NCBI GenBank assembly: GCA_031266455.1
Contig: JAISBA010000004.1
Location: 9,814 to 73,813, forward strand
Direction of reading: 5' to 3'
Length of the DNA: 64,000 bases
DNA from: Puniceicoccales bacterium
Lineage (GTDB): Bacteria > Verrucomicrobiota > Verrucomicrobiia > Opitutales > UBA9783
The position numbers and the translations under genes were made by a program. The stretch's first letter is position 1; each line of letters opens with the position of its first letter. Shown in pieces: positions 24,425-39,565 of this stretch. Below the pieces are notes generated by a model. It worked only from the letters and a program-made list of their open reading frames with translations, was not told where the DNA came from and did not search any database.

Positions 24425-26959
24425 TCACATTTCAGAAGAAACCAACAGGGTATGAGAAAGATCCGATTGTAAATACACTTTGGATCGCTCAAAAAGTTCT
24501 TCTAAGGATACACTATCGATGGCTTTTGCATAATTCAACCAGGCATCTTGAGGTAAATCAAACAACTCATTGATGCCGGCGTAAAATGCCTTTTTGGCGA
24601 TTGTTTGCAAACGTGTTTGCTGGCTCACTTTAAGATGCGATCGACATAGGTCAAATTCTTTAGAAGATATCTGACGGTCCAAAACACGTTGCGTCGCTTT
24701 GAATATTTCTGCTTCAACTGTCTTCAAATGGGATGCCTGAGTACTTGCAAACAAACACAACATACCTCGATTTAATCCCGTTAAACGCGTGGCTCCAACC
24801 GTATAAGCCAAACCTAATTTCTCCCTGACTTCGATAACAAATTGGCTCGACAAGCCATTGAATAATTCTTCCAAATAGTCGGCCACATAATAGTCTTTTG
24901 AACCTATACCTGCCATTGGGTAAGCCTGGAAAACCATCGATTGCTCTTTGTTTAATTGGCATTCGCAGTACCGTTCGGAAGTAAAAAAGATTTCATCGGA
25001 CACTTTTTCAAAACAATTTTCCGAAATTCCATCACCGATGGGCTCCAATAATTTTATTAACTCATCCGTAGGCAGCGGACTGACCGCCGATATGACGCAA
25101 TTGGGGCCAACAAAAATTTTTCTAAAATAATGCCAACAGTGTTCCAATCGCAGCGCTTTTACGTCGTCCTCAATCCCATACTGACCTACGGCGTAGGGAT
25201 GTTGTCCAAAAAATTGATGACGCATTTTTTTAAATCCCACATAAAATACATCATCCATCATCTCCTGAATGGAAGCCAGTTGAGAAGCTTTTTCAATTTC
25301 AAATGTTTCCTCTTTAAATCGAGGCATACGCAGCGCTTCCCCCAATAAATGACATCCCATAGCCGTGTTTTGGGGTAAAGATTCAAAAGCCAATCCTATG
25401 TGATTAATCCCCGTAAAACTATTAAACTGGCCTCCTATGGCGTCAACGGCTTCCGCAATTTCACGTGCCGTATGCTTTTCGGTATCTTTCATCAACAAAG
25501 AAGCCACCAAATGCGAAATACCTCGTTGATGTTCCGGTTCGTACAAAGCCCCCCCCAAACTGAGTACCTGCACGTGCGTTTTTGGGAAAGATGGATTATA
25601 CTGCATCACCAAACGTACGCCATTGGGTAAGGTTATCGATTCCACAGGCTGCGTACGTATCTCCGTAGATTTTTTAAAAAAAACCTTTTCCAATGCTTTT
25701 GGCTCCAAAGATACTTTGGTGCAAGTTGCTGGCTTTAAATATTTGCTCACAATTGCCTTTACACTTTTTGCATCCAATTGTTTCAATTGTTCCAAATAGT
25801 GCTTCGAGTACTGCAGATCTCCCAGGCAGGTGTCAGCCCATCCTAAATGGTGAGCTTGCCCCGATACCGTTTTTTGAGTATCTATTTCCGATACAATTGC
25901 TTGCTTAAGCGCCTTCTGCACGTGCTTTGTTTCAATAGCTGCTTCCGCCATACACTGCAAATTTTTCGATAAAAATTCCTCCACGCAAGCACGTTTTTCT
26001 CCATCACATACGTACTGTATCCAAAATAATCCTTGATCAGCCATCCAGGTGGATACATCGATGGAATAAACGTATCTTAACTCTTCTCTCAATTTTTGAT
26101 ACAGCAGCGAGCTGTCACCGCAACCCAGTACATTGGATAAAACTTGTAACTTAGCTCCATCCTTGTGACCCAACCCTGGAATTTTAAATGCCAACACTCC
26201 ACGTACCAATTGGTAGTCTCCATAAAAACGTTCCACCCTTTCCGCCATTTGGAAAGGTTCTCGAGTAATTAAAACCGGTTGCAAACTTTTTGGCAAACAG
26301 GTGGAAAAATAATGATTCACCCTTTCTTGAATCCATTCAAACGACAAATTACCCACAATAACCAACGTCATGTTATTGATGGGATAGCGCTTACGCCAGT
26401 ATTCAACCAAATCTTCACGCGTCAATTGTTCAAAAATACTTTTAATGCCGATGATGGGGAATCGATAGGGATGCTTACGAAATGCGTTTTCAAATACCAC
26501 TTGATTGAGTCGATCCTCCGGATCATCGTTGCACATGTCGATCTCACGCAAAATCACCTTTTTTTCCTTAAGCATTTCTTCGGATGGAAATGTGGGATGC
26601 AACAGCATATCGCTTAAAATATCCAAACCCAATTCCGCAGATTCCGATGAACCATCGTAAGTATAAACGGTTCTATCAAACGACGTGTAGGCATTGAGAC
26701 TGGCTCCCGAGGCTTGTGCTTCCGAAAAGATATCCGCGTACGTACGCCGCTCCGTCCCTTTAAAAACCATATGTTCCACAAAATGAGAAATACCCGCACC
26801 CAAATATTTGTCTTCGTGAATACTGCCTGTTTTTACCCACGCTTGAATTGCAACCAAACCGGTGTGATCAACGGGTAAAAAAATGACCTTGAGTCCATTG
26901 GAAAGTGCAAAGCAACACGGATGATAGATCAAAAATTCTTCAAATGAACACATATCCAA
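24425..26959 (-). CDS. M16-family zinc peptidase, double (fused active + inactive M16 halves)
   Basis: HxxEH zinc motif in ISHFVEHMVFKGT, then EREVILREI-like KEKKVILREI. A second half has a degenerate site (ISHLVASLLMKDT). The track start is TTG at 26959, and ATG at 26953 is an alternative. Confidence 0.8.
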   Translation of the reverse strand: MDMCSFEEFLIYHPCCFALSNGLKVIFLPVDHTGLVAIQAWVKTGSIHEDKYLGAGISHFVEHMVFKGTERRTYADIFSEAQASGASLNAYTSFDRTVYTYDGSSESAELGLDILSDMLLHPTFPSEEMLKEKKVILREIDMCNDDPEDRLNQVVFENAFRKHPYRFPIIGIKSIFEQLTREDLVEYWRKRYPINNMTLVIVGNLSFEWIQERVNHYFSTCLPKSLQPVLITREPFQMAERVERFYGDYQLVRGVLAFKIPGLGHKDGAKLQVLSNVLGCGDSSLLYQKLREELRYVYSIDVSTWMADQGLFWIQYVCDGEKRACVEEFLSKNLQCMAEAAIETKHVQKALKQAIVSEIDTQKTVSGQAHHLGWADTCLGDLQYSKHYLEQLKQLDAKSVKAIVSKYLKPATCTKVSLEPKALEKVFFKKSTEIRTQPVESITLPNGVRLVMQYNPSFPKTHVQVLSLGGALYEPEHQRGISHLVASLLMKDTEKHTAREIAEAVDAIGGQFNSFTGINHIGLAFESLPQNTAMGCHLLGEALRMPRFKEETFEIEKASQLASIQEMMDDVFYVGFKKMRHQFFGQHPYAVGQYGIEDDVKALRLEHCWHYFRKIFVGPNCVISAVSPLPTDELIKLLEPIGDGISENCFEKVSDEIFFTSERYCECQLNKEQSMVFQAYPMAGIGSKDYYVADYLEELFNGLSSQFVIEVREKLGLAYTVGATRLTGLNRGMLCLFASTQASHLKTVEAEIFKATQRVLDRQISSKEFDLCRSHLKVSQQTRLQTIAKKAFYAGINELFDLPQDAWLNYAKAIDSVSLEELFERSKVYLQSDLSHTLLVSSEM

Positions 26960-27019
26960 CTTATTTCATTGTCTCAAAAAAAGCCACTCCTGTAAAGTTG
27001 AAAACCTCCTTTTATAATT

Positions 27020-27053
27020 CAAAAAATAAACCCTACGTGTTCTCGTAGGGTTT
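27020..27053 (-). terminator. Rho-independent terminator downstream of the 139-aa Cys/His-rich gene
   Basis: The minus-strand transcript reads AAACCCTACG-AGAACA-CGTAGGGTTT followed by ATTTTTT. This is a perfect 10-bp stem (27028-27037 / 27044-27053) starting 21 nt after the stop codon. Confidence 0.75.
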
Positions 27054-27073
27054 ATAAATTTTGTAAGTCTTCG

Positions 27074-27493
27074 TTACCTATTCGGGCAATCCGGCGTGTG
27101 CACCATTCCTTGTCCTGTGAATATCATTGGACAATGTGGACAATGGTGACTGCGATCAGGATCATTCGGGCAATTTGGACCATGACCTCTTGACATAGGA
27201 ACATGACAATACGGACAATCACGATCAGGATCATTCAGGCAATCCGGCATATGGTTTCCTTCTATCATACCACAATGTGGGCACATCGCATGAGGATCAT
27301 TCGGACAACCCGGCATATGATTTCCCATTGACATGGGAACGTGGCAATGTGGACACATCGCATAAGGATTTTGAGGGCAATCCCATTCATCGTGCCCTTC
27401 TTGACCACAATGCGGACATACTACAGCCAGTCCCGGTAATGTCGCCATTAATTTAAATGCAATTAAACAAAGATATTTTTTCATGCAGTTCAT
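27074..27493 (-). CDS. Cys/His-rich tandem CX2C...H...C (zinc-knuckle-like) protein with putative signal peptide, 5 units
   Basis: The 139-aa ORF starts MNCMKKYLCLIAFKLMATLPGLAVV. Five units follow: CPHCGQEGHDEWDC (exact CX2CX4HX4C), CPHCHVPMSMGNHMPGC, CPHCGMIEGNHMPDC, CPYCHVPMSRGHGPNC, CPHCPMIFTGQGMVHTPDC. It ends in CPNR. Two paralogues lie at 33.6 and 34.1 kb. Its own terminator and a conserved upstream region support a real gene. The start is ATG 27493 or ATG 27484 (MKKYL). Confidence 0.7.
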   Translation of the reverse strand: MNCMKKYLCLIAFKLMATLPGLAVVCPHCGQEGHDEWDCPQNPYAMCPHCHVPMSMGNHMPGCPNDPHAMCPHCGMIEGNHMPDCLNDPDRDCPYCHVPMSRGHGPNCPNDPDRSHHCPHCPMIFTGQGMVHTPDCPNR

Positions 27494-27560
27494 CTTGTTA
27501 ACTTTTTTAATATTAGCAAGCTTTTTGTTAATCTTTTTTATAAATTACTTTTACTAAATT
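27494..27560 (-). repeat. Conserved upstream (promoter-bearing) segment 'P' of the Cys/His-rich gene family, copy A
   Basis: Copy A reads cttgttaacttttttaatattagcaagctttttgttaatcttttttataaattacttttac. It recurs at about 85-90% identity by eye at 33777-33840 and 35610-35670. It contains TATAAA on the gene strand. Confidence 0.7.
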
Positions 27561-27775
27561 AAAACTTTAAAATAAGTTAAATATTCATTAAACACAAATT
27601 ATTTTTCTTACGTTACAACGCCCACCCTAACGCTTATTGAACATTTTTAATGCTTTACCTAAACGCCATATCGCTTTTCTACTTCACATTTCATATTGCA
27701 GTCCGTACATCAATAATCGAAGCTTTCGTTGAAAGACCGTAGGTTTATGAGGAAACTTTTACACATCTTGCTTCA

Positions 27776-29248
27776 TTATTGGGATAAGAGCTCCCTTAAA
27801 AGGCGGTCCACCTCACTTATAGGAACCTTTCCTTGCGTATGCTTTACAACTTGCCCTTTTAATACATTCAAAGCCTTTTCCTTTCCAGAACGAAACTCTT
27901 CGGCAGGTTTGGGGAAAGCATCTATAATTTCCGCACACATTATCTTTAAGGCATCCACATCTACAGAAATTTCTAACCCTTTATCTTTCACAATCTTCTG
28001 TGGATCTTCGCCTGTCTTAAAGGTAGCATCAAATACCTCTTTTGCGCTCTGTTTAGATAGGATACCTGAATCCACCAACTCTACCAACGCTGCAACTTGG
28101 CGAGGATCCATTTTCAAATTCTTCCAGGCTTGATGCATATCTTCTGCGGCAAGTTCTCTCAATAAATCATTTACAATCCAATTGGCAATACCCAGAGGAT
28201 TTTTAGCATAAAAGCCCAAAGCGGATTCAAAAAAATCGCTCAATCTTTTATCGGGGCAAATGACGGAAGTCACCGTATACGGCAATTGTAACGTCCGCAA
28301 ATAACGTTCCTGCTTGTCGAAAGGAAACTCCGGCAAAGTTTTTTTCTGAGCCTGAATATCTGCTTCCGATAAACAAATTGGACATAAATCTGGATCCGTA
28401 AAATAACGGTAATCGTGGGCATCTTCTTTGGATCGCATGACAAAACTCTCAGACTTATCGGCATCCCAGCGTCGCGTCTCCTGCACAACGGCTTGCCCCC
28501 GTTCAATGGCGTACAGTTGTCGATTGATTTCGTGTCGAACACCGTTGCACACCCCCGAAATCGAATTCAAATTCTTCAACTCAACTTTGGTCCCTAAGCT
28601 GGTTGTTCCTTGAGGCCTTACGCTGATGTTTGCATCGCACCGCAATTGTCCTTTTTCCATATCGCAATCGGAAGCATCCACGTACTGCAAATGCATGACC
28701 AAAGATTTTAAATAGGCAAAAACCTCTTCCGGAGAATGCATATCGGGCTCGGATACAATTTCGATAAGCGGTGTCCCCGCACGATTGTAATCGATCCAAG
28801 ATATTTGCCCCAAATGGGTTAATTTACCTACATCCTCTTCCAGATGAATTCGATTCAAAGCTACCTTACGATGTTTTCCTTGAATATTTCTGGCAGGACC
28901 CTCAAGTTCAATTTCGACATGTCCACCGAGACATAAGGGCTGATCGAATTGGGAAATTTGATAATTTTTAGGAGAATCTGGGTAAAAATAATTTTTACGA
29001 TCCCACTTGCATTGGCGTGCAATCTCGCAGTCAAATACCAATCCCACCTGCACCGTTTTCAAAACGGCTGCCTTATTGAGTACGGGTAAAGAGCCTGGTA
29101 ATCCCAAAACAACTTCATCCACCAGGGTATTCGGCTCAACACCATAACGATAAGGTGCTCGCGTAAACAACTTCGATTGCGTCTTTAGTTGAACGTGAAC
29201 TTCTAACCCAATAACAGCTTCGTATTGCGTCATATTAAAACAGATCAA
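27776..29248 (-). CDS. gatB: Asp/Glu-tRNA(Asn/Gln) amidotransferase subunit B
   Basis: YEAVIGLEVHVQL start, a typical GatB core and a C-terminal YqeY-like tail. It overlaps the gatA stop by 4 nt. Confidence 0.95.
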   Translation of the reverse strand: MICFNMTQYEAVIGLEVHVQLKTQSKLFTRAPYRYGVEPNTLVDEVVLGLPGSLPVLNKAAVLKTVQVGLVFDCEIARQCKWDRKNYFYPDSPKNYQISQFDQPLCLGGHVEIELEGPARNIQGKHRKVALNRIHLEEDVGKLTHLGQISWIDYNRAGTPLIEIVSEPDMHSPEEVFAYLKSLVMHLQYVDASDCDMEKGQLRCDANISVRPQGTTSLGTKVELKNLNSISGVCNGVRHEINRQLYAIERGQAVVQETRRWDADKSESFVMRSKEDAHDYRYFTDPDLCPICLSEADIQAQKKTLPEFPFDKQERYLRTLQLPYTVTSVICPDKRLSDFFESALGFYAKNPLGIANWIVNDLLRELAAEDMHQAWKNLKMDPRQVAALVELVDSGILSKQSAKEVFDATFKTGEDPQKIVKDKGLEISVDVDALKIMCAEIIDAFPKPAEEFRSGKEKALNVLKGQVVKHTQGKVPISEVDRLLRELLSQ

Positions 29249-30711
29249 AGATTCGGAATTTTAAGGTTAAAGGGATGATGCTTTTCAAATGTGTACGCCA
29301 TCGACAACAAAGTTGTTTCTTCCCACGGTTTTCCAATGAGCTGGCATCCTATGGGTAACCCTCTATTGGTAAAACCGCACGGAAAAGAAATTGCAGGTAA
29401 TCCAGCCAAATTAACGGAAATTGTATAAAGGTCGCTCAAGTACATTGCCAATGGATCGCTCGTCTTTTCTCCTTTTTTAAAAGCCGGCACAGGTGAAGTA
29501 GGTGTCACTAAGACATCTACTTCCGCGAATGCACGCATAAAATCATTGTAAATAAGCCGCCTTACTTTTTGAGCTTTGCCGTAAAACGCGTCGTAGTAAC
29601 CACTACTAAGGACGTAAGTTCCCAATAAGATGCGACGCTTAACCTCTTCACCTAACCCTTCGCTCCTGGACTGATCGTAAACTTCATCAATATTCTTTGC
29701 ACGTGGACTACGATAAGTGTAACGAATGCCATCGTAACGGGCTAAATTGGAAGATGCTTCAGCGGTGGCGATGATATAGTAAACGGGAATCGCATATTCC
29801 AGGGAGGTTAAATGAACCGGTTTTACAATGTACCCTTGAGCTTCATAAAAATGAATTGCCTTTTCAACCGAAGATTTTACTTCCGAATCCAAGCCTTCTC
29901 CAAAATACTCTTCCGGAACTCCCAATATCCATTTTTTCCCTTCACTGGACTGTACAGCGGCTAAGTAATCCGGAACATGCATGCGTGCACACGTCGAATC
30001 TTTAGGATCGGCTCCCGATAAAACTTGCAAAAGGGCCGCAACCCCTCCTGCGGTGCGCGCCAACGGACCCGCTTGGTCCAATGAGCTTGCATAGGCAACC
30101 ATTCCATAGCGACTGATGCATCCGTAAGAAGGCTTCAATCCTACAACTCCGCACATGGAAGCCGGCTGACGGACAGATCCCCCCGTATCCGTTCCCAATG
30201 ACAAAGAGACCTCGCCTGCGGCAACGGCAGCCGCACTTCCAGAACTACTACCCCCCGGGACTCTATCTAAGTCCCACGGATTACTCGTCACTTGAAAAGC
30301 AGAATTCTCGGAAGAAGAGCCCATGGCAAATTCATCCATATTAAGTCTTCCCCACAAAACAGCTCCGGCATCCTTTAATTTTTTCACCACGGTTGCATCA
30401 TAGGGACTCACAAAATGTTCCAATATACGACTTCCACAGGTCAAACGTTGACCTTTTTCGGCAAAAATATCCTTAAGTCCCACCGGCACACCGTCTAGTC
30501 TACCGAGACTTTGTCCTCTGGAACGACGCACATCGGATGCTTCAGCTTCAGCAAGCGTCTTTTTTTCATCAAAATTCAAAAATGCCTTTAGGGATTTATC
30601 AATCGCGTACGTGCGTGCGATGAAAGCCTTTGTTAACTCAACGGATGAGAATTGTTTTTTCTCCAATCCCTCACTTAATTGTTCAAACGTACCCCAAATA
30701 AGGTTTTCCAT
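29245..30711 (-). CDS. gatA: Glutamyl-tRNA(Gln) amidotransferase subunit A
   Basis: Amidase signature GGSSSGSAAAVAAG and GTDTGGSVRQPAS. Confidence 0.95.
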   Translation of the reverse strand: MENLIWGTFEQLSEGLEKKQFSSVELTKAFIARTYAIDKSLKAFLNFDEKKTLAEAEASDVRRSRGQSLGRLDGVPVGLKDIFAEKGQRLTCGSRILEHFVSPYDATVVKKLKDAGAVLWGRLNMDEFAMGSSSENSAFQVTSNPWDLDRVPGGSSSGSAAAVAAGEVSLSLGTDTGGSVRQPASMCGVVGLKPSYGCISRYGMVAYASSLDQAGPLARTAGGVAALLQVLSGADPKDSTCARMHVPDYLAAVQSSEGKKWILGVPEEYFGEGLDSEVKSSVEKAIHFYEAQGYIVKPVHLTSLEYAIPVYYIIATAEASSNLARYDGIRYTYRSPRAKNIDEVYDQSRSEGLGEEVKRRILLGTYVLSSGYYDAFYGKAQKVRRLIYNDFMRAFAEVDVLVTPTSPVPAFKKGEKTSDPLAMYLSDLYTISVNLAGLPAISFPCGFTNRGLPIGCQLIGKPWEETTLLSMAYTFEKHHPFNLKIPNL

Positions 30712-30712
30712 G

Positions 30713-31003
30713 CTATAAAACCCGTGGGACTACAATTTGTTTTTCTTTCATTTCCGGAGCGTTGCGAGATAAAAAATCAACGCCATCTTCGGGGTATTCC
30801 GGAATATCTTCGGCCCAAAAATTACCCTCGTGAGAAAAAGAATGCACCCTCGGTTCTAAATTTTCCACACCTGCTTCGCATACCTTTGAACAGTATCCAA
30901 CAATATCTTGCAATTGATTTAAAAACGTTTCACGCTTATGCCCGTCGAGCTCAATACGGGCTAACTTAGCCAAATGATCGATATCGATCTCCGAATGCAT
31001 CAT
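30713..31003 (-). CDS. gatC: Asp/Glu-tRNA amidotransferase subunit C
   Basis: 96 aa with IDHLAKLARIEL (GatC N-terminal pattern). It sits immediately upstream of gatA, and its start overlaps the pheT stop by 4 nt. Confidence 0.85.
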   Translation of the reverse strand: MMHSEIDIDHLAKLARIELDGHKRETFLNQLQDIVGYCSKVCEAGVENLEPRVHSFSHEGNFWAEDIPEYPEDGVDFLSRNAPEMKEKQIVVPRVL

Positions 31004-33414
31004 ACAGCCTGCTTTCTTATTTGATAGGTATAATCTTTTTCCAAACAGCCCTGCAATTTTTCAAAAACATCGTTCACTTGCTCATCCGTCAGGGTTCCCA
31101 TATGTGAATCAAATACGAGTGAAAATGCAAGACTTTTTTTCTTACTATGTGTCGTATCATAGAAAACGTCAAAAATGTTTACACATTTCAATTGCATCGG
31201 ATGTTGCATGATTTTTCGAACCGATTTTTCAATATTTTGGCGCACCGCCTCAGCCAATGTATCCGCGTCTACCAACAGAGCTAAGTCCTTACGCACAGCG
31301 GGGTATTCCGAATAGATCTGAAACCATTTGTGATCTTTTATGTGTAGTTTGTCAGGCATCCAACAACATTCGCCCGCCAAAACAACCGCTTCTTTAAACC
31401 ATCGACGCGTAAAATTTAAATTCACGTATCCAAAATTGGCTTCAAAGCCGCGCTGTTCCCATGCACCTACGTTTCCGGCGTAATCTTTCTGCCACAAGGC
31501 ATCCACCTGTTTTGTAGTACTTTGCATTACTTCGTTCGTCCCCCCACAAGCCACCATCATCGAACGCACCCATGCCTGCGCATCGTAAAAGTCAAATGAA
31601 GGGACTTCCTTCCACCGTTTAACGTCGGCCGGACATACCACGAACGCACTCGCAAACAACTCGCATAATTGGCCATCCTTTTGAACTCGGAATATGCGGC
31701 CCGATTCAAATAAACGTTCCACATCGTTGCCGTGGTGTCTGTTATCGCACAAAGCATTCAACAGTCCCGGAATGAGAGAAAAACGTAAACATGCATGCTC
31801 AGCACTTAACGGATTGAATACCTTCAATGCTTCTTTCGGTATTAAATTTTCGCCCAAAGAAGCCGGTTGCAAACTATCCGTGTAGCATTCTAAAAATCCG
31901 TGTGCGGATAAAAGTTGCGCGTGTCTCTTTTTCAAGAGATATGTATTTGAAGTACTCAGGCAACATGCGGGACCTTCAGGCATTTTAGAAGGGATAGAGT
32001 CGGTTCCAAACAAACGCAGAAACTCTTCAACCAAATCCACTCCCTGCGCAACATCGGCCCGATGGGTAGGGATTGCTACTTCCCAATGTTCATTGTCACA
32101 AGGTACAACCTCAAAACCTAATTTTTTTAGGGTGTCGACAAAAAATTTCGGATCCACATGAAAACCTAACAATCTTTCCACCTGAGAAAATTCAAATTTT
32201 ACTTTACGCAACGAAACGGCATCGGATCCCGCAACCACACACTGCTCGCATACAATTTTATCGTCCATGGATAACAATAATTGGACGGCCCTGCACAAAG
32301 CTTCTCGCGCATGCGTTTTATCCACGTAGCGTTCAAAGCGGTAGGAGCTATCTGAACTTAAATCCAATTTGCGAGAGGACATGCGTATACTATCCGCTTG
32401 AAAATGAGCACTTTCCAAAAAAACAGTCGTTGTGGTTGTTTTAATTTCACTTTCCTCACCTCCCATAATACCCGCAATCGCTAATGGCTTATCGCGGTCT
32501 GCAACAAGTAAAGTATTTTCCGGCAAAGACCTCGTAACTCCATCCAACGTTCTAATACATTCTCCCATACGCGCACCCCGTACACAAATACGATCCCCGC
32601 GTATGAGATCCCAATCAAAAGCGTGTAACGGTTGACCTCTTTCCAAGAGTACAAAATTGGTCACATCGACCACGTTATTAACGGGACGTAAGCCCACCGA
32701 TTGCAGTGTATTTTTCAACCAATCCGGACTAGGCCCTACGTGCACGTTTTTCAAAAGGCAACCCGCATAATAATCGCATCCATCCGAATTGAGTTCCACC
32801 GATATATTTTTTATGGGAGGCAAATCCAGCAAACATTCGGGATAAATAATGGGTAAATCCAGCGCAGCACTCAATTCTCTCGCTATTCCCAAATAACTTA
32901 AACAATCCCCACGATTTGAGGTAATGGATAGATCCATAACCGTATCGCTTTGATCCACAAAAAGCTTTGCCAAAGGCTCTCCCACATTTGGATGCAAGTC
33001 ATTGAGAATGTACAAACCTGCACTCTCCTTACCCAACCCCAATTCGTTGGCACTGCACATCATACCGCAAGATTCAACATCTCGTATGCGTGTCTTTTTT
33101 AAAAGGGTCTCTCCCAATTGCGCACCCGGTAAAGCAACGGGGACCACATCTCCTTCTTTAAAATTTGTCGCTCCGCAAACAATTTGCAACGAACGATTTC
33201 GCCCAATATCTACCTCACAAACACTTAGTCGATCGGCATGGGGATGTTTTTCCTTTTTTAGAACACGACCTACAACCAAATCACCCTTGCCGCAATATCC
33301 AATCGCCTCCACATTTTCTACTTCGAAACCCAGTCCTATCAAGATTTCGCACAATTCCATCGAAGACTGCTTAAAATGGACATACCATCTTAAGGTATTT
33401 AAAGCGATTTTCAT
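31000..33414 (-). CDS. pheT: Phenylalanine--tRNA ligase beta subunit
   Basis: 804 aa. It has an N-terminal tRNA-binding (EMAP/OB) domain with VVGRVLKKEKHPHADRLSVCEVDIG, B3/4 and B5 regions, and a C-terminal FDX-ACB-like domain. No pheS is adjacent. Confidence 0.9.
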   Translation of the reverse strand: MKIALNTLRWYVHFKQSSMELCEILIGLGFEVENVEAIGYCGKGDLVVGRVLKKEKHPHADRLSVCEVDIGRNRSLQIVCGATNFKEGDVVPVALPGAQLGETLLKKTRIRDVESCGMMCSANELGLGKESAGLYILNDLHPNVGEPLAKLFVDQSDTVMDLSITSNRGDCLSYLGIARELSAALDLPIIYPECLLDLPPIKNISVELNSDGCDYYAGCLLKNVHVGPSPDWLKNTLQSVGLRPVNNVVDVTNFVLLERGQPLHAFDWDLIRGDRICVRGARMGECIRTLDGVTRSLPENTLLVADRDKPLAIAGIMGGEESEIKTTTTTVFLESAHFQADSIRMSSRKLDLSSDSSYRFERYVDKTHAREALCRAVQLLLSMDDKIVCEQCVVAGSDAVSLRKVKFEFSQVERLLGFHVDPKFFVDTLKKLGFEVVPCDNEHWEVAIPTHRADVAQGVDLVEEFLRLFGTDSIPSKMPEGPACCLSTSNTYLLKKRHAQLLSAHGFLECYTDSLQPASLGENLIPKEALKVFNPLSAEHACLRFSLIPGLLNALCDNRHHGNDVERLFESGRIFRVQKDGQLCELFASAFVVCPADVKRWKEVPSFDFYDAQAWVRSMMVACGGTNEVMQSTTKQVDALWQKDYAGNVGAWEQRGFEANFGYVNLNFTRRWFKEAVVLAGECCWMPDKLHIKDHKWFQIYSEYPAVRKDLALLVDADTLAEAVRQNIEKSVRKIMQHPMQLKCVNIFDVFYDTTHSKKKSLAFSLVFDSHMGTLTDEQVNDVFEKLQGCLEKDYTYQIRKQAV

Positions 33415-33422
33415 GCCTCGAA

Positions 33423-33451
33423 AGTAAAATCTTTGAGAACAATTTTGTCAA
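33423..33451 (-). promoter_or_regulatory. Candidate sigma70-type promoter for pheT-gatCAB (TTGACA-N17-TTTACT)
   Basis: The minus strand reads cgcgTTGACAaaattgttctcaaagatTTTACTttcgaggcATG. The -35 is a perfect consensus and belongs to repeat U. The -10 is weak (4/6) and lies only 8 nt from the ATG, implying a near-leaderless mRNA. Sequence-pattern call only. Confidence 0.3.
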
Positions 33452-33494
33452 CGCGAATTTAAATTGTAAACTATTCGAAAATTTCCTAATCAAC
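33445..33494 (-). repeat. Repeat 'U' copy 1 (50 bp); other copies at 33843-33894 and 35675-35726
   Basis: Copy 1 is ttgtcaacgcgaatttaaattgtaaactattcgaaaatttcctaatcaac. Copy 3 is ttgtcaacgcgaatttaaatcgtaaactattcgaaaatttcccaatcaac. Copy 2 is ttgtcaacgtgaatttaaatcgcaaaccactcgaaagttttccaatcaat. Confidence 0.85.
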
Positions 33495-33533
33495 TAAAAA
33501 ACACTCCTGTACAGTTGAAAACCTCTCTATAAT

Positions 33534-33567
33534 TCAAAAAACAAACCCTACAAAAGATGTAGGGTTT
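33534..33567 (-). terminator. Rho-independent terminator downstream of the frameshifted Cys/His-rich paralogue
   Basis: The minus strand reads AAACCCTACA-TCTTT-TGTAGGGTTT followed by GTTTTTT. It is the homologue of the 27020-27053 hairpin, with a compensated stem change (G:C to A:T). Confidence 0.7.
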
Positions 33568-33589
33568 ATAAATCTTGTAAGCCTTCACA

Positions 33590-33776
33590 TTACCTATTCG
33601 GGCAACCAGGCCTATGATGTCCTCCACGTTCACCACACTGTGAGCACATACGATCAGGACAAATTGCTTTCATTATGCCCATCGTGACCACAATAGGGAC
33701 ATGTCATAGCCATTCCTGGCAGTGTCGCCATTAATTTAAATGCAACTAAATAAAGATATTTTTTCATATGGCTCAT
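33590..33776 (-). pseudogene. Frameshifted two-unit paralogue of the Cys/His-rich zinc-knuckle-like family
   Basis: My translation gives (MSH)MKKYLYLVAFKLMATLPGMAMTCPYCGHDGHNESNLS* and then, in another frame, CPDRMCSQCGERGGHHRPGCPNR*. Removing one T from the run at 33661-33663 (gene strand AATTTG) restores CPYCGHDGHNESNC, an exact CX2CX4HX4C unit, and one continuous ORF. The length is not a multiple of 3. Confidence 0.7.
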
Positions 33777-33819
33777 TCTGTTAATCTTTTTAATATTAGC
33801 AAGCTTTCTATTAATCTTT

Positions 33820-33849
33820 TTTATAGATTACTTTTTACTTACTTGTCAA
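33820..33849 (-). promoter_or_regulatory. Candidate promoter TTGACA-N18-TATAAA of the frameshifted paralogue
   Basis: On the minus strand, TTGACA is at 33849..33844 and TATAAA at 33825..33820. The spacing and boxes are the same as the 35652-35681 copy. Confidence 0.45.
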
Positions 33850-33894
33850 CGTGAATTTAAATCGCAAACCACTCGAAAGTTTTCCAATCAATTT

Positions 33895-33954
33895 CTACCA
33901 ACGAATACGAACACATCCATTCTGACCCACTAAACGTTCTTGCGTCTTGTAATC
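33895..33954 (-). pseudogene. 60-bp fossil copy of the 3' end of the 35727-37625 gene
   Basis: The reverse complement translates to DYKTQERLVGQNGCVRIRW*. The intact gene ends DYKTQERLAGQNGCVRIRW*. It directly follows repeat U copy 2, as in the intact locus. Confidence 0.85.
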
Positions 33955-34040
33955 AATTGGGAAAAATGACCTAGTCCACTGGAAAATGTAAAACAATACG
34001 GGTTATAGGTCAAAAATTCTTCAAACGAACATACGTCCAA
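33951..34040 (-). pseudogene. About 90-bp fossil copy of the 5' end of the M16 peptidase gene (source 26868-26959)
   Basis: The reverse complement TTGGACGTATGTTCGTTTGAAGAATTTTTGACCTATAACCCGTATTGTTTTACATTTTCCAGTGGACT... matches M16 TTGGATATGTGTTCATTTGAAGAATTTTTGATCTATCATCCGTGTTGCTTTGCACTTTCCAATGGACT... The ATG is lost (ATATGT to GTATGT) and there are indels further in. Confidence 0.8.
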
Positions 34041-34112
34041 CTTGTTTTATTGTCTCAAAAAAACCAGTACTGTACAGCTAAAAACCTCCTTTTATAAATT
34101 TTGTAAGCCTTA

Positions 34113-34511
34113 TTACCTATTCGGACACCTAGGCTTATGGTTTCCTCCAAATTTACCACACTGCGGACACTTCGAATTCGGGTGAGTACAATCTCTTGCA
34201 TTATGGTTTCCTTCACAATATGGACATGTATAGCGAGAACACCTAGGCTTATGGTTTCCTCCAAATTTACCACACTGCGGACACATCGAATTTAGATGAA
34301 TACAAGCTCTTGCATCATGGATTTTTCCACAATATGAACATGTAAAGCGAGGACACCTAGGCATATGGTTTCCTCCAAGTTTACCACACTGCGGACACTT
34401 TGAATTCGGATGGACACAAAATTCTGCAGCATGTGTTCCTCCACAATATGGACATGTATAGCGAGAACACCTAGGCTTATGGTTTCCTCCAAATTCAAAA
34501 CACTCTGGACA
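34113..34511 (-). repeat. Intragenic tandem repeat, 114-bp (38-aa) period, about 3.5 copies
   Basis: The protein units are CPECFEFGGNHKPRCSRYTCPYCGGTHAAEFCVHPNSK, CPQCGKLGGNHMPRCPRFTCSYCGKIHDARACIHLNSM, CPQCGKFGGNHKPRCSRYTCPYCEGNHNARDCTHPNSK and CPQCGKFGGNHKPRCPNR*. The DNA motif acacctaggcttatggtttcctccaaatttaccacactgcggaca recurs every 114 bp. Confidence 0.9.
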
Positions 34512-35546
34512 CATCGAATGGACGCAAACTCCCGCAGCATGCCTTTCTTGATCACAATATGGGCATATATAATGAGGACAACAGGGCATATGTCCAACTT
34601 CACCGCACTGCGGACACATGTAGCCCGGACTATTTGGACAATCCGGCCTATGGTTTCTTCCAAATTCACCACACTGCCGACACTTACTTATTGGACAATC
34701 GAACACATGAAATCCTGCCATGGGCCTAAGGCAATGCGGACACATGGGCTCACCGTAGTATGGGTAAATCGGACACCCGCGCACATGAGGTCCTGTCATG
34801 AGAACACGACAATGCGGACATATGGACACCTTGTCGTGTAGGCAGCTCGGACACCCGGATGCATGAGGTCCTGCCATGGGAATATGACAACTCGAACACA
34901 TGGACACATTGTAGTATGGGCAATCGGGCGTATGAGGTCCTGTCATGGGCTCAAGGCAATGCGGACATTCGCGATTAGGATCATTCGGACAATCCGGTAT
35001 ATGTCTTTCCGATATGGGAACATGACAACGCCGACACATGAGCACATTGTAGTATGGGCAATCGAGCGCATGAGGTCCTGTCATGGGCTCAAGACAATGC
35101 GGACATTTGCGATTAGGATCATTCGGGCAATCCGGTATATGACTTCCCAATATAGGAATATTACACTGCTGGCATATCGGATTAGGATAATCAGGACAAT
35201 CTCTTACATTATGAATTTCTCCACAATGTGAACATGTACAGTCAGGACAAGCAGGCCAATGGTTTCCTCCAGATCTACCACAGTACGAACATCTTGAACA
35301 AGTATTCATTCTTTCATGATCTTTCGGATATTCATAGGAAAGATAATCGGACCTATGGCTTTTATAGGAAAGACAATTGAAACTATAGCTTTCTTTATGG
35401 CCACCACAGTGCGAACATCTTGCATTTGGATGGGCACAATCCCTTGCCTCATGCCCTCTTTGACCACAATACGGACACGCATAGTTAGGACAACAGTGCT
35501 TATGGTTAGGTACACATTCACCACAATGCGGACATACTTCAGCCAT
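34113..35546 (-). CDS. Giant Cys/His-rich array of about 24 CX2C...H...C zinc-knuckle-like units (477 aa); leader start codons lost, possibly decaying or cytoplasmic
   Basis: The intact 477-codon ORF has 72 Cys by my hand count. It includes exact CX2CX4HX4C units (CPYCGQRGHEARDC), CX2CX6HX3C units (CPQCGKFGGNHKPRC) and CX2CX7HX3C units (CPHCLEPMTGPHALDC). It ends in CPNR like both paralogues. The region homologous to the signal peptide is in frame upstream but both ATGs are ATA. Confidence 0.6.
   Translation of the reverse strand: MAEVCPHCGECVPNHKHCCPNYACPYCGQRGHEARDCAHPNARCSHCGGHKESYSFNCLSYKSHRSDYLSYEYPKDHERMNTCSRCSYCGRSGGNHWPACPDCTCSHCGEIHNVRDCPDYPNPICQQCNIPILGSHIPDCPNDPNRKCPHCLEPMTGPHALDCPYYNVLMCRRCHVPISERHIPDCPNDPNRECPHCLEPMTGPHTPDCPYYNVSMCSSCHIPMAGPHASGCPSCLHDKVSICPHCRVLMTGPHVRGCPIYPYYGEPMCPHCLRPMAGFHVFDCPISKCRQCGEFGRNHRPDCPNSPGYMCPQCGEVGHMPCCPHYICPYCDQERHAAGVCVHSMCPECFEFGGNHKPRCSRYTCPYCGGTHAAEFCVHPNSKCPQCGKLGGNHMPRCPRFTCSYCGKIHDARACIHLNSMCPQCGKFGGNHKPRCSRYTCPYCEGNHNARDCTHPNSKCPQCGKFGGNHKPRCPNR
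34899..35174 (-). repeat. Intragenic tandem repeat, 138-bp (46-aa) period, 2 copies
   Basis: CQQCNIPILGSHIPDCPNDPNRKCPHCLEPMTGPHALDCPYYNVLM is followed by CRRCHVPISERHIPDCPNDPNRECPHCLEPMTGPHTPDCPYYNVSM. The C..CHVP.S..H.P.CPNDP signature is shared with the 139-aa paralogue. Confidence 0.9.
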
Positions 35547-35651
35547 TCCTGGCAGTGTCGCTATTAATTCAAATGCAACTAAATAAAGATACCTTTTTAT
35601 GCCGTCTATTTTGTTAGCTTTTCTAATATTAGTAAGCTTTTTGTTAATCTT

Positions 35652-35681
35652 TTTATAAATTATTTTTTACTTATTTGTCAA
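35652..35681 (-). promoter_or_regulatory. Candidate promoter TTGACA-N18-TATAAA upstream of the 477-aa Cys/His-rich gene
   Basis: The minus strand reads cgcgTTGACAaataagtaaaaaataattTATAAAaag. The -35 is at 35681..35676 and the -10 at 35657..35652. It is conserved in the 33.8-kb copy. Confidence 0.45.
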
Positions 35682-35726
35682 CGCGAATTTAAATCGTAAA
35701 CTATTCGAAAATTTCCCAATCAACTT

Positions 35727-37625
35727 CTACCAACGAATACGAACACATCCATTCTGACCCGCTAAACGCTCTTGCGTCTTGTAATCCTTTTGTCCATTAC
35801 CTCCATTTCCAAATTGACCTAACATAGCAACCTGCTGCCCGGCATAATGACTCTCACTACCCCTTGTTGCCGGTACACCCATAGCTCCTCCATCACAACG
35901 AATTTCCAAAGAATGAACGTGGACCGTAGTTGCCTCACCTGCAGCTAGCTCTGAGGCTTGCCCGACATGGATGGAAACAATACCTCCACTTTGTACACCC
36001 TCGATTTTCTCCATTCTAAAAGTACCCGAACCTCCACCGTTTCCACTGATGCTAAAATCCGTCAAATATTGTACATCGAGATAGATTCTCATATTTTTTT
36101 GCGATTTTGTCCTCGCATCCATCTTTGACATCCAACTGTTCTCATTTACTTGATTCTCTGTAACGTTATGAGAAAAAGAAACACCGTAAGAATAGACGTA
36201 GTCTTTCTGTTTTCTGTCATTGTATATCATGTTTAATACAAAATTTCTAGTTTCCTTATCTTTAAGTTCCACGCATTGATTAAATCGAGGTAGGTTATGA
36301 GGGTTATCAGTTCTATAGACCAAAAATTCATTACTTGTTGCTGGAAACCTACTCATACGGCCGGTAACATTGGTGATGCGCGCTGGACCTGTCACATATA
36401 TAGGTGTTTTAGACCATATCCATCCTCTCCATGAATGATATTCTAAATTTAAATCACTCGTCTGTTCCACTGGGGTCCCCCAATCCCGATATTGTAAAGC
36501 AGGACTACCGCTTCCGCCTGCACCGATCGCTTCAATCGTAATGGTATGCACGCCTTCCGGAATCGCCCAAAAGTATTTCCCGGGCTGATCAAAAACAACT
36601 TGCCCATGATTTTGTTCGACAACAATATCGGTTGCTTCACAAACATCCTCCTCCATTGATATTTTAAGATCTTCCAACAAATGATCGTACGCTTCACTAC
36701 ATTTGTGCAATTTTTCTAGTTCACACGCAACATTTTGCTCGCGCATGGAAACGTACAACCAAAGTGTAAAAAAAGAATCTACATCGATGCAAAAATGCTT
36801 GTCTTTACAATTACACCACGTGACGTGTGGAGAGAACAAATTTAAATAAGGTTCGCAAAGGGGGTCCAAACGTTGCATTAATTTAACAACGTTACTCGCA
36901 ACATCATCAAATTCGGATAACCGCCTAAAGGCATCCCATGCAATATGACTTATCTTAAGTTTAGCTGAAAACTTGCAAGGGATGAGGATAAAAGTAGAAG
37001 ACTTACACATCAAAGGAAAAGACCAGGTATCGGTTGGGTGCAAAGATAAATCACCGCATTTATCCATAAGCAGATCATTAAAAAAATGCGCCGTGTAGTT
37101 CAGAACATTTAGGAAATCAGCTGCGGATAATAATGAAAGCGCTTCCATTAAGTGCTGTCGATGCGCCCGTATCGGTTCAATAAAATACTGATTCCAAATA
37201 TCGTGCACATTTTGGATATCTTTTTGCGTAATATCCAATGGAAGCCCTACTAAACAATCTTCGTTATCCTGATAGGCATAATGTTGTAACACGCAGTCAG
37301 GTTGCTTTATCAGATGTGGTAATGTGTGCTGAAAATAGGGATATCCCCATACATAATTGGCAATGCTACCACACACCCAATAACTCCCAAACTGAACGGC
37401 AAATGGGGGCGGAGATTTGTATTTTCGGTACAAATTCAGAACGTTCGGCAATTCTTCTGCGGAAAAAGACTTTCTACAAAAAATTTCTGCAGGAATGTAT
37501 AAAAAACCTTTATCTTTTTGATTATTTGAATCTTTTAAAACAAAAGTCGGACAATGGGGAAATGCAAACAGCATTTCGGTAGCCAAACACAAAGCTACAG
37601 TAAAACATTTACTGTACTTAAACAT
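35727..37625 (-). CDS. Hypothetical exported protein; unknown N-terminal about 340 aa plus C-terminal region with GAGGSGS / GNGGGSG / GNGGNG glycine clusters
   Basis: 632 aa. The N-terminus MFKYSKCFTVALCLATEMLFAF is hydrophobic and leader-like. The C-terminal part contains GKYFWAIPEGVHTITIEAIGAGGSGS, FSISGNGGGSGTF and GQFGNGGNGQ, and ends GQNGCVRIRW. This pattern is reminiscent of glycine-rich beta domains of phage, viral or surface fibre proteins. I recognised no catalytic motif. Confidence 0.6.
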   Translation of the reverse strand: MFKYSKCFTVALCLATEMLFAFPHCPTFVLKDSNNQKDKGFLYIPAEIFCRKSFSAEELPNVLNLYRKYKSPPPFAVQFGSYWVCGSIANYVWGYPYFQHTLPHLIKQPDCVLQHYAYQDNEDCLVGLPLDITQKDIQNVHDIWNQYFIEPIRAHRQHLMEALSLLSAADFLNVLNYTAHFFNDLLMDKCGDLSLHPTDTWSFPLMCKSSTFILIPCKFSAKLKISHIAWDAFRRLSEFDDVASNVVKLMQRLDPLCEPYLNLFSPHVTWCNCKDKHFCIDVDSFFTLWLYVSMREQNVACELEKLHKCSEAYDHLLEDLKISMEEDVCEATDIVVEQNHGQVVFDQPGKYFWAIPEGVHTITIEAIGAGGSGSPALQYRDWGTPVEQTSDLNLEYHSWRGWIWSKTPIYVTGPARITNVTGRMSRFPATSNEFLVYRTDNPHNLPRFNQCVELKDKETRNFVLNMIYNDRKQKDYVYSYGVSFSHNVTENQVNENSWMSKMDARTKSQKNMRIYLDVQYLTDFSISGNGGGSGTFRMEKIEGVQSGGIVSIHVGQASELAAGEATTVHVHSLEIRCDGGAMGVPATRGSESHYAGQQVAMLGQFGNGGNGQKDYKTQERLAGQNGCVRIRW

Positions 37626-38315
37626 GCAGAGCTATCATTTTTTAACAAAAAACTTTTTGTCAACTCCTAAAGTTATTAAAAATATTTCAAAAGATAGCTT
37701 TGCCATCGATATTGGTGCACACACAGGAGATACAACCGTTCCTATGGCTATTGCCACTGGATATTAATACTCGGGCTAGAACCCAATCCATACGTTTTTA
37801 AAATTTTGGAACGTAATTCACAACTCAATAAAAATCTTGCGCAGATCATTCCACTGTGCTCTGCTGCCACTTTAGAAAACGGGACATTTGAATTTAACTA
37901 CTCCGATGCGTCTTTTTGTAATGGAGGATTTTTATCTAAAATTCAGACAAAATCCCATCATCATTCTCATAAATTAACGGTAAAAGGCATAAATCTTTCA
38001 ACTTATTTAAATGAAAATATGAAAGCGTACTTACCAAAGTTAAATTTCGTTAAAGTCGATACGGAAGGATACGACAAAGATGTCTTATTGAGTTTAACCC
38101 ATATTATAAAAAGCTATCGTCCCATTATTATGGCAGAGTGTTACAAACGTTTAACAAAAGAAGAACGTTTCTCACTATTTAACATTTTTGAAGATTTTGG
38201 TTCTTACAAACTATTCAAATTAGATGACAATGGTCACGTTTCAACCATTCACATTCCGTCGGGGGAAATGATGCTGAGTGAACCACATTTCAATTTTATC
38301 GCTCTACCCGAGTGA
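37624..38315 (+). pseudogene. FkbM-family methyltransferase, frameshifted (two reading frames)
   Basis: Frame A from ATG 37624 reads MQSYHFLTKNFLSTPKVIKNISKDSFAIDIGAHTGDTTVPMAIATGY* with a stop at 37765. Frame B, open from 37698, reads ...ILILGLEPNPYVFKILERNSQLN...VKVDTEGYDKDVLLSL... The motifs DIGAxxGdtt, EPnP and K.D.EG.E...L are the FkbM methyltransferase pattern. The shift lies near 37759-37765. Confidence 0.7.
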
Positions 38316-39337: not shown

Positions 39338-39565
39338 CTAGAAACTTAGCGACGTATTTCTTGTGGAACACTTACGGCAACATTGTTCTTCACAATTATC
39401 CACGTTAAAGTATATTTCGCCACAGTGCTTGCAATAAAAAACATGGCGCAACTTCAATGGGGCATAATCCTTTAGAACGCGTCTTTCAAAACCTGTTTGC
39501 CAAACAACAAATAGAATGATCGTTGCACAATAGAAAAGACTTAAGCAATACTCTAAAGATCCCAT
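39338..39565 (-). CDS. Small hypothetical membrane-anchored zinc-ribbon protein
   Basis: 75 aa with one hydrophobic helix (CLSLFYCATIILFVVW), then CKHC...x18...CRKC. It is wedged 7 nt upstream of kdsD on the same strand, downstream of rplQ. Confidence 0.4.
   Translation of the reverse strand: MGSLEYCLSLFYCATIILFVVWQTGFERRVLKDYAPLKLRHVFYCKHCGEIYFNVDNCEEQCCRKCSTRNTSLSF

Follow-up and report, generated by a model that had tools for sequence, protein, structure and literature searches.

Tandem arrays of Cys-Cys-His-Cys (CCHC) units are, to our knowledge, essentially a feature of eukaryotes and retroelements. CNBP has seven such knuckles, and in the nucleic-acid-binding knuckles of CNBP and NCp7 an aromatic residue after the first Cys stacks on bases. 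Gram-negative bacteria have metal sponges of the SilE/PcoE type in the periplasm, which are small, leader-bearing, domain-free and rich in soft-metal ligands; these lack Cys and are disordered until metal binds. Modular metallothioneins offer a third comparison. In Oikopleura OdiMT2, metal capacity rises stepwise with a repeat number that varies between populations (PMC8283569), while TmMT of Tremella (257 aa) and CnMT1/2 of Cryptococcus are built of tandem-amplified 7-Cys units, TmMT having been called in 2016 the longest metallothionein then known (PMC4755600). Here we analyze a 64,000-nucleotide stretch ("the window") of contig JAISBA010000004.1 from a Puniceicoccales metagenome-assembled genome (MAG; assembly GCA_031266455.1), in which a minus-strand open reading frame (ORF) at 34113..35546, the "long gene", encodes a 477-aa array of such units.

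Judged from its sequence, the long gene is real, coding and bacterial, and it places a CCHC-type array in an unambiguous bacterial chromosome although such arrays are regarded as a eukaryotic or retroelement feature. No comparable bacterial protein is known to have been described. By analogy, its product appears most like a modular metal binder of the zinc-knuckle or metallothionein type. We favor, at a probability of roughly 45%, the reading that it is a modular multi-site metal-binding protein whose capacity would scale with unit number.

The long gene encodes 21 to 24 Cys-Cys-His-Cys units

The ORF opens with ATG, runs for 477 codons and ends in CPNR-stop. Its product contains 72 Cys, 60 Pro, 41 His and 35 aromatic residues (Cys 15.1%, Pro 12.6%, His 8.6%, aromatics 7%). 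The original prediction, which had been made without database searches, gave the same length, Cys count and C terminus, and described about 24 tandem knuckle-like units with about 23 CxxC pairs. These counts hold up well: a strict parse with the pattern C-x2-C-x(1-9)-H-x(1-6)-C recovers 21 units containing 65 of the 72 Cys, about three further units are degenerate, and there are 24 distinct CxxC starts (26 with overlaps counted). The description of a continuous array is correct in that knuckle-like Cys3His units occur throughout, but not for residues 38-82, which are degenerate.

The units fall into several classes by the number of residues on either side of the His. Seven have (7,3) spacing and are of a Pro type, such as CPHCLEPMTGPHTPDC; five have (6,3) spacing and are of a Gly type, such as CPQCGKFGGNHKPRC; and four have (3,4) spacing, such as CPYCEGNHNARDC. 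Canonical zinc-knuckle (4,4) spacing is found in two of the 21, at residues 24-37 and 328-341, and the remaining three strict units have odd spacings. In most units Pro follows the first Cys, and most open with CP[HYQ]CG. Cys, His and Met together make up 27% of the residues of the long protein, and 27-40% across the family described below, against 6.9% in neighboring genes. The ligand-residue pattern is far beyond chance.

The unit classes are organized into nested repeats at the DNA level. Tandem Repeats Finder (TRF) detected the predicted 114-bp and 138-bp periods (3.5 copies at 34125-34519 and 2.1 copies at 34876-35165) as well as a 78/69-bp period at 34703-34927, and every repeat period is divisible by three. 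The C-terminal super-repeat pairs the Gly-type unit CPQCGKFGGNHKPRC with a short-type unit, CPYCxGxHxAxxC, and resembles the two-unit body of a second paralogue, P3. The central array is built of the 69/78-bp and 138-bp repeats and is akin to the units of a third family member, P1. The copies had been called near-identical in DNA, which they are not: identity is 76-89% among the 114-bp copies, 83-88% among the 138-bp copies and 61-75% among the 69/78-bp copies, and the longest exact repeat is 54 bp. With repeat units of 69-138 bp at 61-89% identity and no hypermutable tract, the label of a contingency gene is not supported. Continued growth by slippage finds no simple-sequence tract on which to act, while rare unequal recombination is possible.

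The long gene has a marked codon skew (TGT 62 versus TGC 10; CAT 37 versus CAC 4), whereas in neighboring genes Cys codons are used roughly 1:1 and His codons are less skewed. The likeliest cause is that a few founding units were amplified, not that selection favored these codons. Plus-strand ORFs of 122-143 aa across the same region were rejected: changes at Cys and His codons are purely synonymous only when the minus-strand frame is read, and these ORFs were taken as side products of the repeats.

The long gene belongs to a small family with an ancestral locus next to gatB

The long protein aligns by BLASTP with the product of P1 (38-39% identity, E = 9e-18), which is on record as hypothetical protein MDR1254549.1 (LBJ78_00765), encoded on a 102-kb contig from a Puniceicoccales MAG. 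It has 139 aa when read from a conserved first ATG, and is annotated from the second ATG as 136 aa. Genes at the position of P1, with gatB on one side and the M16 peptidase gene on the other, are found in the related contigs L002 (62 aa), L004 (P0002, 126 aa) and L005/L006 (P0003, 107 aa). In L007, P0004 (130 aa) follows gatB and the contig ends before the downstream neighbor. The long gene apart, family members have 62-139 aa and 2-7 CCHC units each. The first unit is a canonical C-x2-C-x4-H-x4-C knuckle (C-x-x-CGQEGHD-x-x-x-C) in every P1-locus member except P0004, while the number and type of units beyond the first vary. P0004 contains an internal in-frame duplication of 99 nt at 93% identity and P0002 one of 60 bp in 2.8 copies; because these arose independently, unit turnover is a property of the whole family. 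Mature P1 is acidic (isoelectric point, pI, 5.8; net charge -9), and mature P1 and P0002 are rich in Met (9-11%) and His (12-14%).

The family is very small: about seven members among 5.8 billion proteins, from some six related genomes of a small Puniceicoccales clade. When the long protein was compared with the 5.8 billion clusters in a phmmer-type search, none of 4061 word-sharing candidates reached E <= 1e-3; the search missed even the protein's own paralogue, probably through composition correction. A profile of the C-terminal super-repeat had no match at E <= 1 in the 5.8 billion proteins. A profile of the P1 family, run against 1.84 billion representatives, retrieved P0002-P0005 and about 28 weak matches with E values between 3e-8 and 1e-3, which lie within the knuckle region (profile positions ~23-60) and consist mainly of Cys, His and Gly. 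Those with a named taxon were all eukaryotic (Dunaliella, wasps, fungi, a tortoise), and the four that were scanned against Pfam were all PF00098 zinc-knuckle proteins. No bacterial relatives outside the clade appeared in these protein searches of billions of sequences. In two scans of metagenome contigs, one with the family alignment and one anchored on pheT, there were pattern matches, none of which passed tblastn.

Curated models gave little. The whole long protein has no Pfam match at E <= 1, and the highest PF00098 score of any isolated unit is 17.9 bits (E = 0.003), where the gathering threshold is 20.8 bits. P0002, P0003 and P0004 have no zf-CCHC match, P1 has weak, below-threshold matches to zinc-ribbon models, and NCBIfam, PADLOC and Rfam scans of the bacterial members returned nothing. 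By threshold, then, the family is not a member of any curated family. The Pfam, NCBIfam and PADLOC scans likewise revealed no other domain in the long protein or the family.

We considered whether the units could be true zinc knuckles and the long protein, leaderless and partly basic, a poly-zinc-knuckle like CNBP or retroviral nucleocapsid. It would then coat or remodel single-stranded nucleic acid (DNA or RNA), either within the cytoplasm of the bacterium or, if exported, in a eukaryotic host; on that reading the fold may have been acquired from a eukaryote. The CGQEGH core of the canonical first unit is like that of retroviral and eukaryotic knuckles, the PF00098 score of one long-protein unit and the purely eukaryotic zf-CCHC arrays retrieved by the profile outside the clade point the same way, and there are weak matches to NCp7 and a pairwise match (E = 1e-8) to a fungal CCHC array that shares C-x2-C-x3-H-x4-C spacing. 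The C-terminal array, with a net charge of +13 and Tyr/Phe, would also suit such a role. Against this, 19 of the 21 units have non-canonical spacing, none of the units reaches the Pfam threshold, and the first Cys is followed by Pro, not by the aromatic that stacks on bases. Acidity and a secretion-type leader mark the ancestral proteins, and the acidic-to-neutral charge of the family argues against generic nucleic-acid binding. Loops with dN/dS (the ratio of non-synonymous to synonymous divergence) of about 1 or more, and free gain and loss of units, would be unexpected for a specific binding surface, and the host-like base composition gives no sign of recent transfer. We hold nucleic-acid binding, the leading rival to metal binding, to be unlikely. 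Its more specific form, a first bacterial poly-zinc-knuckle in which a eukaryote-type CCHC module took hold in a narrow Puniceicoccales clade, was amplified to 21-24 units, lost its leader and now, in the cytoplasm or delivered to a host, binds single-stranded nucleic acid or a host target, with loops shaped by an arms race and not by drift, we hold to be decidedly unlikely.

The long gene arose by insertion and amplification of a P1 cassette

The window includes gatCAB, pheT, a ribosomal-protein operon and rpoBC, and its pheT is 86-88% identical to pheT of two Puniceicoccales (Verrucomicrobiota) MAGs. By these marks the contig is bacterial and from a Puniceicoccales MAG. Because base composition matches that of the host genome, there is no sign of recent transfer.

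In three relatives (L001, L002 and L004), a 635/642-aa gene, the counterpart of a 632-aa gene in the window, is followed after ~75-85 bp by pheT. DNA alignment shows that window positions 33495-35674 (2.18 kb) are an insertion that all three lack, with a 52-bp intergenic element repeated directly on either side. The three copies of this pheT-upstream element are 81-96% identical, and there is no transposase or integrase near the inserted cassettes. The insert was copied from the P1 cassette: its upstream region and leader are 84-86% identical, and its downstream region 86-88% identical, to those of P1. Since a 5' fragment of the M16 peptidase gene (33948-34040) follows the long gene as its full-length form follows P1, the long gene stems from a segmental copy of the P1 locus. 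A tandem duplication is marked by 92% identity between 33811-33954 and 35644-35786. The copied 3' fragment of the 632-aa gene at 33894-33954 is now broken by a stop codon.

The other product of that duplication is P3, whose +1 frameshift is due to an extra A at about 33668-33670; frame-corrected, it would read ...CPYCGHDGHNEAICPDRMCSQCGERGGHHRPGCPNR followed by the stop codon. Its truncated 37-aa product (33654-33776) is on public record as a called gene, P0005. The original prediction had named two paralogues with the same CPNR-stop end as the long gene. Both do end so and both belong to the same family, but the copy at 33590-33776 is frameshifted.

These comparisons show a history in four steps. 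First, a ~690-bp copy of the P1 cassette entered the intergenic element upstream of pheT, and the inserted cassette was then duplicated in tandem, giving P3 and the long gene. The P3 copy decayed through its frameshift, and the other copy expanded to 21-24 units by nested in-frame duplications of 69-138 bp. Source locus, insertion, tandem copy and amplification are all recorded in the DNA. The long gene is, on this evidence, a hyper-expanded P1 paralogue and a lineage-specific protein-coding gene.

Synonymous divergence between internal copies (0.06-0.29) is lower than between genomes (~0.4), so the amplification post-dates the split from the nearest sampled relatives. By this measure it is younger than that split, yet not very recent. 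The claim of a recent expansion thus stands in the sense that the array is evolutionarily young, the block being absent from the three relatives.

The assembly shows no sign of collapse at the long gene

Because the source is a MAG contig, we asked whether the copy number or the cassette join could reflect short-read mis-assembly or strain mixing. Exact repeats within 33381-35800 reach 54, 46 and 36 bp at most, all shorter than a read, and the copies differ at 11-39% of positions, leaving an unambiguous assembly path; none of the joins disrupts the reading frame or the ligand pattern. The same read set was assembled independently as Logan contig L003 (run SRR14710922), which matches window positions 23628-33922 (10,295 bp) at 100% identity and has the P3 frameshift too. 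The long gene lies outside this contig, but Logan assemblies use k=31, and a k=31 graph would be expected to stop at a 36-bp repeat such as the one in which L003 ends. We found no sign of collapse, which the original prediction had named as a possible artefact, or of chimerism at the long gene, and we consider an assembly artefact extremely unlikely.

The long gene has lost its leader and gained a putative promoter

Other family members begin with a hydrophobic leader of ~25 residues, M-x-x-[MVI]-KKYLYLxAFKLMATLPxMA. By eye, it would fit a Sec-type signal peptide, reading as MxxM-KK, then YLYLIAFKLMATL, then P-[VG]-[ML]-A before VVC. Its mean hydropathy is 1.7-1.9, with a Lys within the hydrophobic core. 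A lipoprotein reading was rejected, as the residues before the first Cys are A-V-V and not a lipobox. Upstream of the long ORF an in-frame leader remnant can still be recognized, in which each of the three ATG codons has become ATA and the hydrophobic core has a K-to-E change. The long ORF starts instead at an ATG-GCT directly ahead of the first Cys. We infer that this start lies close to the mature N-terminus of the other members, for which a signal-peptidase cut is predicted after P-x-[ML]-A. Initiation of the leader at ATA is possible in principle and has no support. Shine-Dalgarno motifs are generally lacking in genes of this genome, and the absence of one at the long gene is therefore uninformative.

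The insertion junctions create what is, on reading the sequence directly, a near-consensus putative promoter, TTGACA-18 nt-TATAAA, for which the pheT intergenic element supplies the -35 box and the P1 cassette the -10 box. A second such pair lies at the other junction (33849-33820, minus strand), and the native P1 locus has no such pairing. An automatic promoter scan had missed these because it requires a T at position 6 of the second hexamer.

The only homopolymer feature at the family loci is an A6 run in the Lys-Lys codons of the leader. In the P1 orthologue of L002 (MAG Pcl387_bin165; 15910-15945) there is an ATGAAA insertion and the run is A7, not A6, which puts the leader out of frame; the sole in-frame ATG is then at MAVVC, the position at which the long gene starts. 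The run may be prone to slippage that switches the leader on and off, or it may reflect an error of assembly.

The label of surface or effector gene had been attached to the long copy; we found no evidence for it, and the start codon of the secretion-type leader is gone from this copy. A related possibility is that the family makes a secreted Cys-rich peptide (a toxin, bacteriocin, disulfide-knotted peptide or precursor of a ribosomally synthesized and post-translationally modified peptide, RiPP), of which the long copy is a by-product; the leader would serve export or processing, and activity would reside in the hypervariable, Cys-rich core. The conserved leader ahead of a fast-evolving core of variable length fits this, P1 and P3 each have their own terminator, and the gene downstream of P1 is conserved as an M16-family peptidase with sub-threshold likeness to PqqF and YfmH/YfmF. 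Yet no radical-SAM enzyme, cyclase, ABC exporter or immunity gene lies nearby, the neighbors being housekeeping genes (gatCAB, pheT, UDG, fabV-like), and there are no NCBIfam or PADLOC matches. An invariant His in each unit, and Cys in odd number, speak for metal sites and not for disulfides, and the leaderless long copy still keeps its ligands under selection. A secreted peptide is thus very unlikely. A RiPP cluster in particular was rejected: the leader/core pattern is present, but there is no modifying enzyme or exporter near gatB, the M16 peptidase, UDG and enoyl reductase genes.

Selection acts on the ligands and hardly on the loops

To ask which positions are constrained, we partitioned sites across the three 38-aa copies and two 46-aa copies of the long protein. 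None of the 16 ligand columns varies, compared with 28 of the 68 other columns (Fisher p = 6.5e-4). Between the youngest copies, ligand codons have synonymous differences only; when 48 substitutions were placed at random in a neutral simulation of 20,000 trials, the probability of no ligand change was 5e-5. In the loops, dN/dS between copies is close to 1 or higher. For orthologues at the P1 locus it is 0.26-0.30, against 0.05-0.11 for gatB and the M16 peptidase gene, and their dN is about ten times that of these neighbors. Rows for L002, shifted out of register by a leading stop codon, were left out of the first codon alignment. Selection on the ligand codons of the long gene is real, while the loops drift or diversify. 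The analysis shows the ligands to be the only strongly selected positions, with unit number free to change.

This result bears on the reading that the long gene is a non-functional, decaying duplicate, the outcome of a runaway amplification at a site prone to duplication that is unexpressed or unneeded and still open only because it is young. The three changes of leader ATG to ATA, the deleted terminator hairpin, the degenerate residues 38-82 and the frameshift in the sister copy P3 all fit decay, as does the absence of the block from all relatives and of the long gene from the record of called genes. The all-site dN/dS between recent copies is 0.7-1.9, and in the neutral simulation of the youngest copies the frame stays open in 15% of trials, so that an absence of stop codons there has a modest probability under neutrality. 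On average, then, the long gene has the dN/dS near 1, and the family the frameshift, that the original prediction had associated with neutral decay, but the site partition reveals selection on ligands instead: ligand codons are intact where drift predicts their loss. Moreover, the 477-codon frame has been kept although 5% of single-base changes in it would create a stop, all repeat periods are multiples of three, and the near-consensus TTGACA-18-TATAAA stands upstream. Decay is, in our view, quite unlikely.

A modular metal-binding protein is the favored reading

In the metal-binding reading, each unit would fold round a single metal ion, with three Cys and one His as its ligands, much as a zinc knuckle does, and a CPxCG turn would form the first half of the knuckle. 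The long protein would then be a string of ~21-24 independent metal sites. That selection acts on the ligands and hardly on the loops fits metal binding as the selected property. The ancestral form would be exported, and its secretion-type leader and richness in Met, His and Cys suggest periplasmic or extracellular binding of zinc or soft metals. The long form would stay in the cytoplasm, because its leader cannot be translated, and would serve there as a high-capacity metal buffer or store.

Comparison with solved structures gave, as its best match, ribosomal protein S27ae (E = 0.007), whose Cys4 zinc ribbon aligned with a pair of neighboring units; matches to HIV-1 nucleocapsid NCp7 were weak (E = 0.3-0.65). 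The S27ae alignment raises ligation by four Cys from neighboring units as a possible alternative arrangement. We disfavor it because the invariant His and fourth Cys of each unit would be left unexplained.

Several observations weigh against a metal-binding function for the long protein. Its composition is not that of a classical metallothionein, which has 20-30% Cys in CxC/CC/CxxC clusters and few aromatic or His residues (here Cys is 15%, aromatics 7%, His 8.6% and Pro 12.6%). No Pfam or NCBIfam model of bacterial metallothioneins matches it, and the sole similarity outside the clade is to eukaryotic CCHC nucleic-acid-binding arrays. Its C-terminal array is basic, the positive charge of the protein (pI 8.1) being confined to residues 361-477, and residues 38-82 include a 24-residue stretch free of Cys. 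The AlphaFold models are unreliable, both for the full-length protein (predicted local distance difference test, pLDDT, 32.8) and for a two-unit module with a 14-row family alignment (pLDDT 53.5). The gene is known from a single MAG contig, L003 stopping at 33922 short of it, and exact look-ups of the protein with and without its stop codon did not find it on record as a called gene. The first leader ATG is kept in all seven aligned upstream regions except that of the long gene, and the terminator hairpin of the P1/P3 type has been deleted after it. Together with the frameshifted sister and the degenerate stretch, the lost leader and terminator suggest that constraint on the long copy may have weakened.

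If the units do bind metal one for one, the long gene would represent a new bacterial route to a high-capacity metal store. Like the modular metallothioneins, it would also illustrate cleanly, in nature, how protein function can scale with the number of repeats. Should the units bind nucleic acids instead, bacteria would for the first time have a counterpart to CNBP-like proteins. On either reading it is a tractable case of a new, large 477-aa protein derived from a ~60-aa precursor within one lineage, with each growth step (source locus, insertion, tandem copy, amplification, leader loss, sister decay) readable from the DNA.

Features of the window and neighboring genes

Table 1. Coordinates of the long gene, its paralogues and associated elements in the window.
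Feature	Position	Strand	Remarks
Long gene	34113..35546	-	21 strict + ~3 degenerate Cys-Cys-His-Cys units; CPNR-stop end
C-terminal array	34113..34519	-	38-aa super-repeat x3.5; TRF period 114
Central Pro-type array, residues 125-288	34683..35174	-	seven CxxC-x7-H-x3-C units
Degenerate segment, residues 38-82	35301..35435	-	broken units; 30-bp x2 repeat
Leader remnant, untranslatable (IDGIKRYLYLVAFELIATLPG)	35547..35609	-	in frame, upstream of the long ORF
Promoter-like TTGACA-18 nt-TATAAA (putative)	35652..35681	-	at insertion junction; read directly from sequence
52-bp intergenic element, copy 1, insertion target	35674..35725	-	by repeat comparison
52-bp intergenic element, second of three copies	33842-33893		within duplicated segment
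52-bp intergenic element, copy 3, ancestral position	33444..33495	-	directly upstream of pheT
P1-downstream copy	33948..34097	-	includes ~31 codons of the M16 peptidase gene 5' end (LDVCSFEEFLTYNPYCFTFS...)
Second copy of 632-aa gene last ~20 codons, intergenic element and cassette start	33811..33954	-	
P3, two-unit paralogue with intact leader	33590..33776	-	+1 frameshift
Intrinsic terminator after P3	33541..33569	-	12-bp stem + T-run
P1, ancestral-locus member	27074..27493	-	leader + 6 units; between gatB and M16 peptidase gene
Intrinsic terminator after P1	27026..27055	-	

Some neighboring genes deserve mention in their own right. The 632-aa protein (35727-37625, minus strand) has a signal-like N-terminus and a Gly-rich C-terminal part, and Pfam, NCBIfam and PADLOC gave nothing significant for it. 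The relatives have it as a conserved gene, but in L004 (2051-3993) it is split into ORFs of 416 and 224 aa. Exact look-ups of this protein and of gatA found nothing on record. Beyond it, a gene of the FkbM methyltransferase family (37806-38315, plus strand) has 169 aa from a TTG start, where its counterparts in L002 and L004 have 278 aa; near 37680 it lacks ~236 bp over its 5' end that L001 and L002 possess, and it is probably a truncated pseudogene. Between a kpsF-like gene and rplQ, a 75-aa ORF (39338-39565, minus strand) that is also present in L001 and L002 encodes a hydrophobic N-terminus and a Cys-rich tail (..CKHCGEIYFNVDNCEEQCCRKCS..), and is unrelated to the CCHC family.

Comparison with known systems

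With PF00098 knuckles and CNBP arrays, the family shares the Cys-Cys-His-Cys ligand order and short head-to-tail units. The C-x2-C-x4-H-x4-C spacing with a CGxxGH core is likewise shared, by the first units of family members other than P0004 and by two units of the long protein. The differences are considerable: the host is bacterial, 19 of 21 units are spaced (7,3), (6,3), (3,4) or oddly, Pro replaces the aromatic, the ancestral members are acidic and leader-bearing, and there is no other domain and no RGG box in the long-protein sequence. The long protein also has about three times as many units as CNBP.

An array in Mycena crocata KAJ7175181.1 (P0011, residues ~60-265) mixes canonical knuckles with C-x2-C-x3-H-x4-C units (CPICGADHWLTDC, CPRCGGEHWLRDC) and has CPNRPCPHC linkers, and short-type spacing therefore also occurs in eukaryotic arrays.

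The CP[HYQ]CG turn that opens most units is shared with the rubredoxin-type CPxCG knuckles and zinc ribbons of bacteria and archaea (for instance S27ae/eS31). Zinc ribbons, however, use two CxxC knuckles (Cys4), where each unit here has an invariant His and a single fourth Cys, and all zinc-ribbon matches of the long protein and P1 are below threshold. SilE and PcoE resemble P1 and P0002 in richness in Met and His; there is no sequence similarity, and the present family is defined by its Cys3His units.

CNBP had been put forward as the only well-known analogue, but with 2 of 21 units spaced as in CNBP, modular metallothioneins are at least as close (PMC8283569, PMC4755600). Those proteins differ from the long protein in having no sequence relationship to it, and in using CxC/CC thiolate clusters where this family has Cys3His single-site motifs; the long protein also has 15% Cys with abundant His, Pro and aromatics, and its family a secretion-type leader. 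TmMT has 257 aa, compared with 477 aa for the long protein, whose metal binding is putative. What is shared is the architecture: modular metallothioneins consist only of repeated Cys-rich modules, grow in tandem and in frame, and differ in module number between close lineages, and here the orthologues have 2-7 units and the long copy 21-24, with no other domain. By this analogy, modular metallothioneins appear to be the best functional analogues of the long protein.

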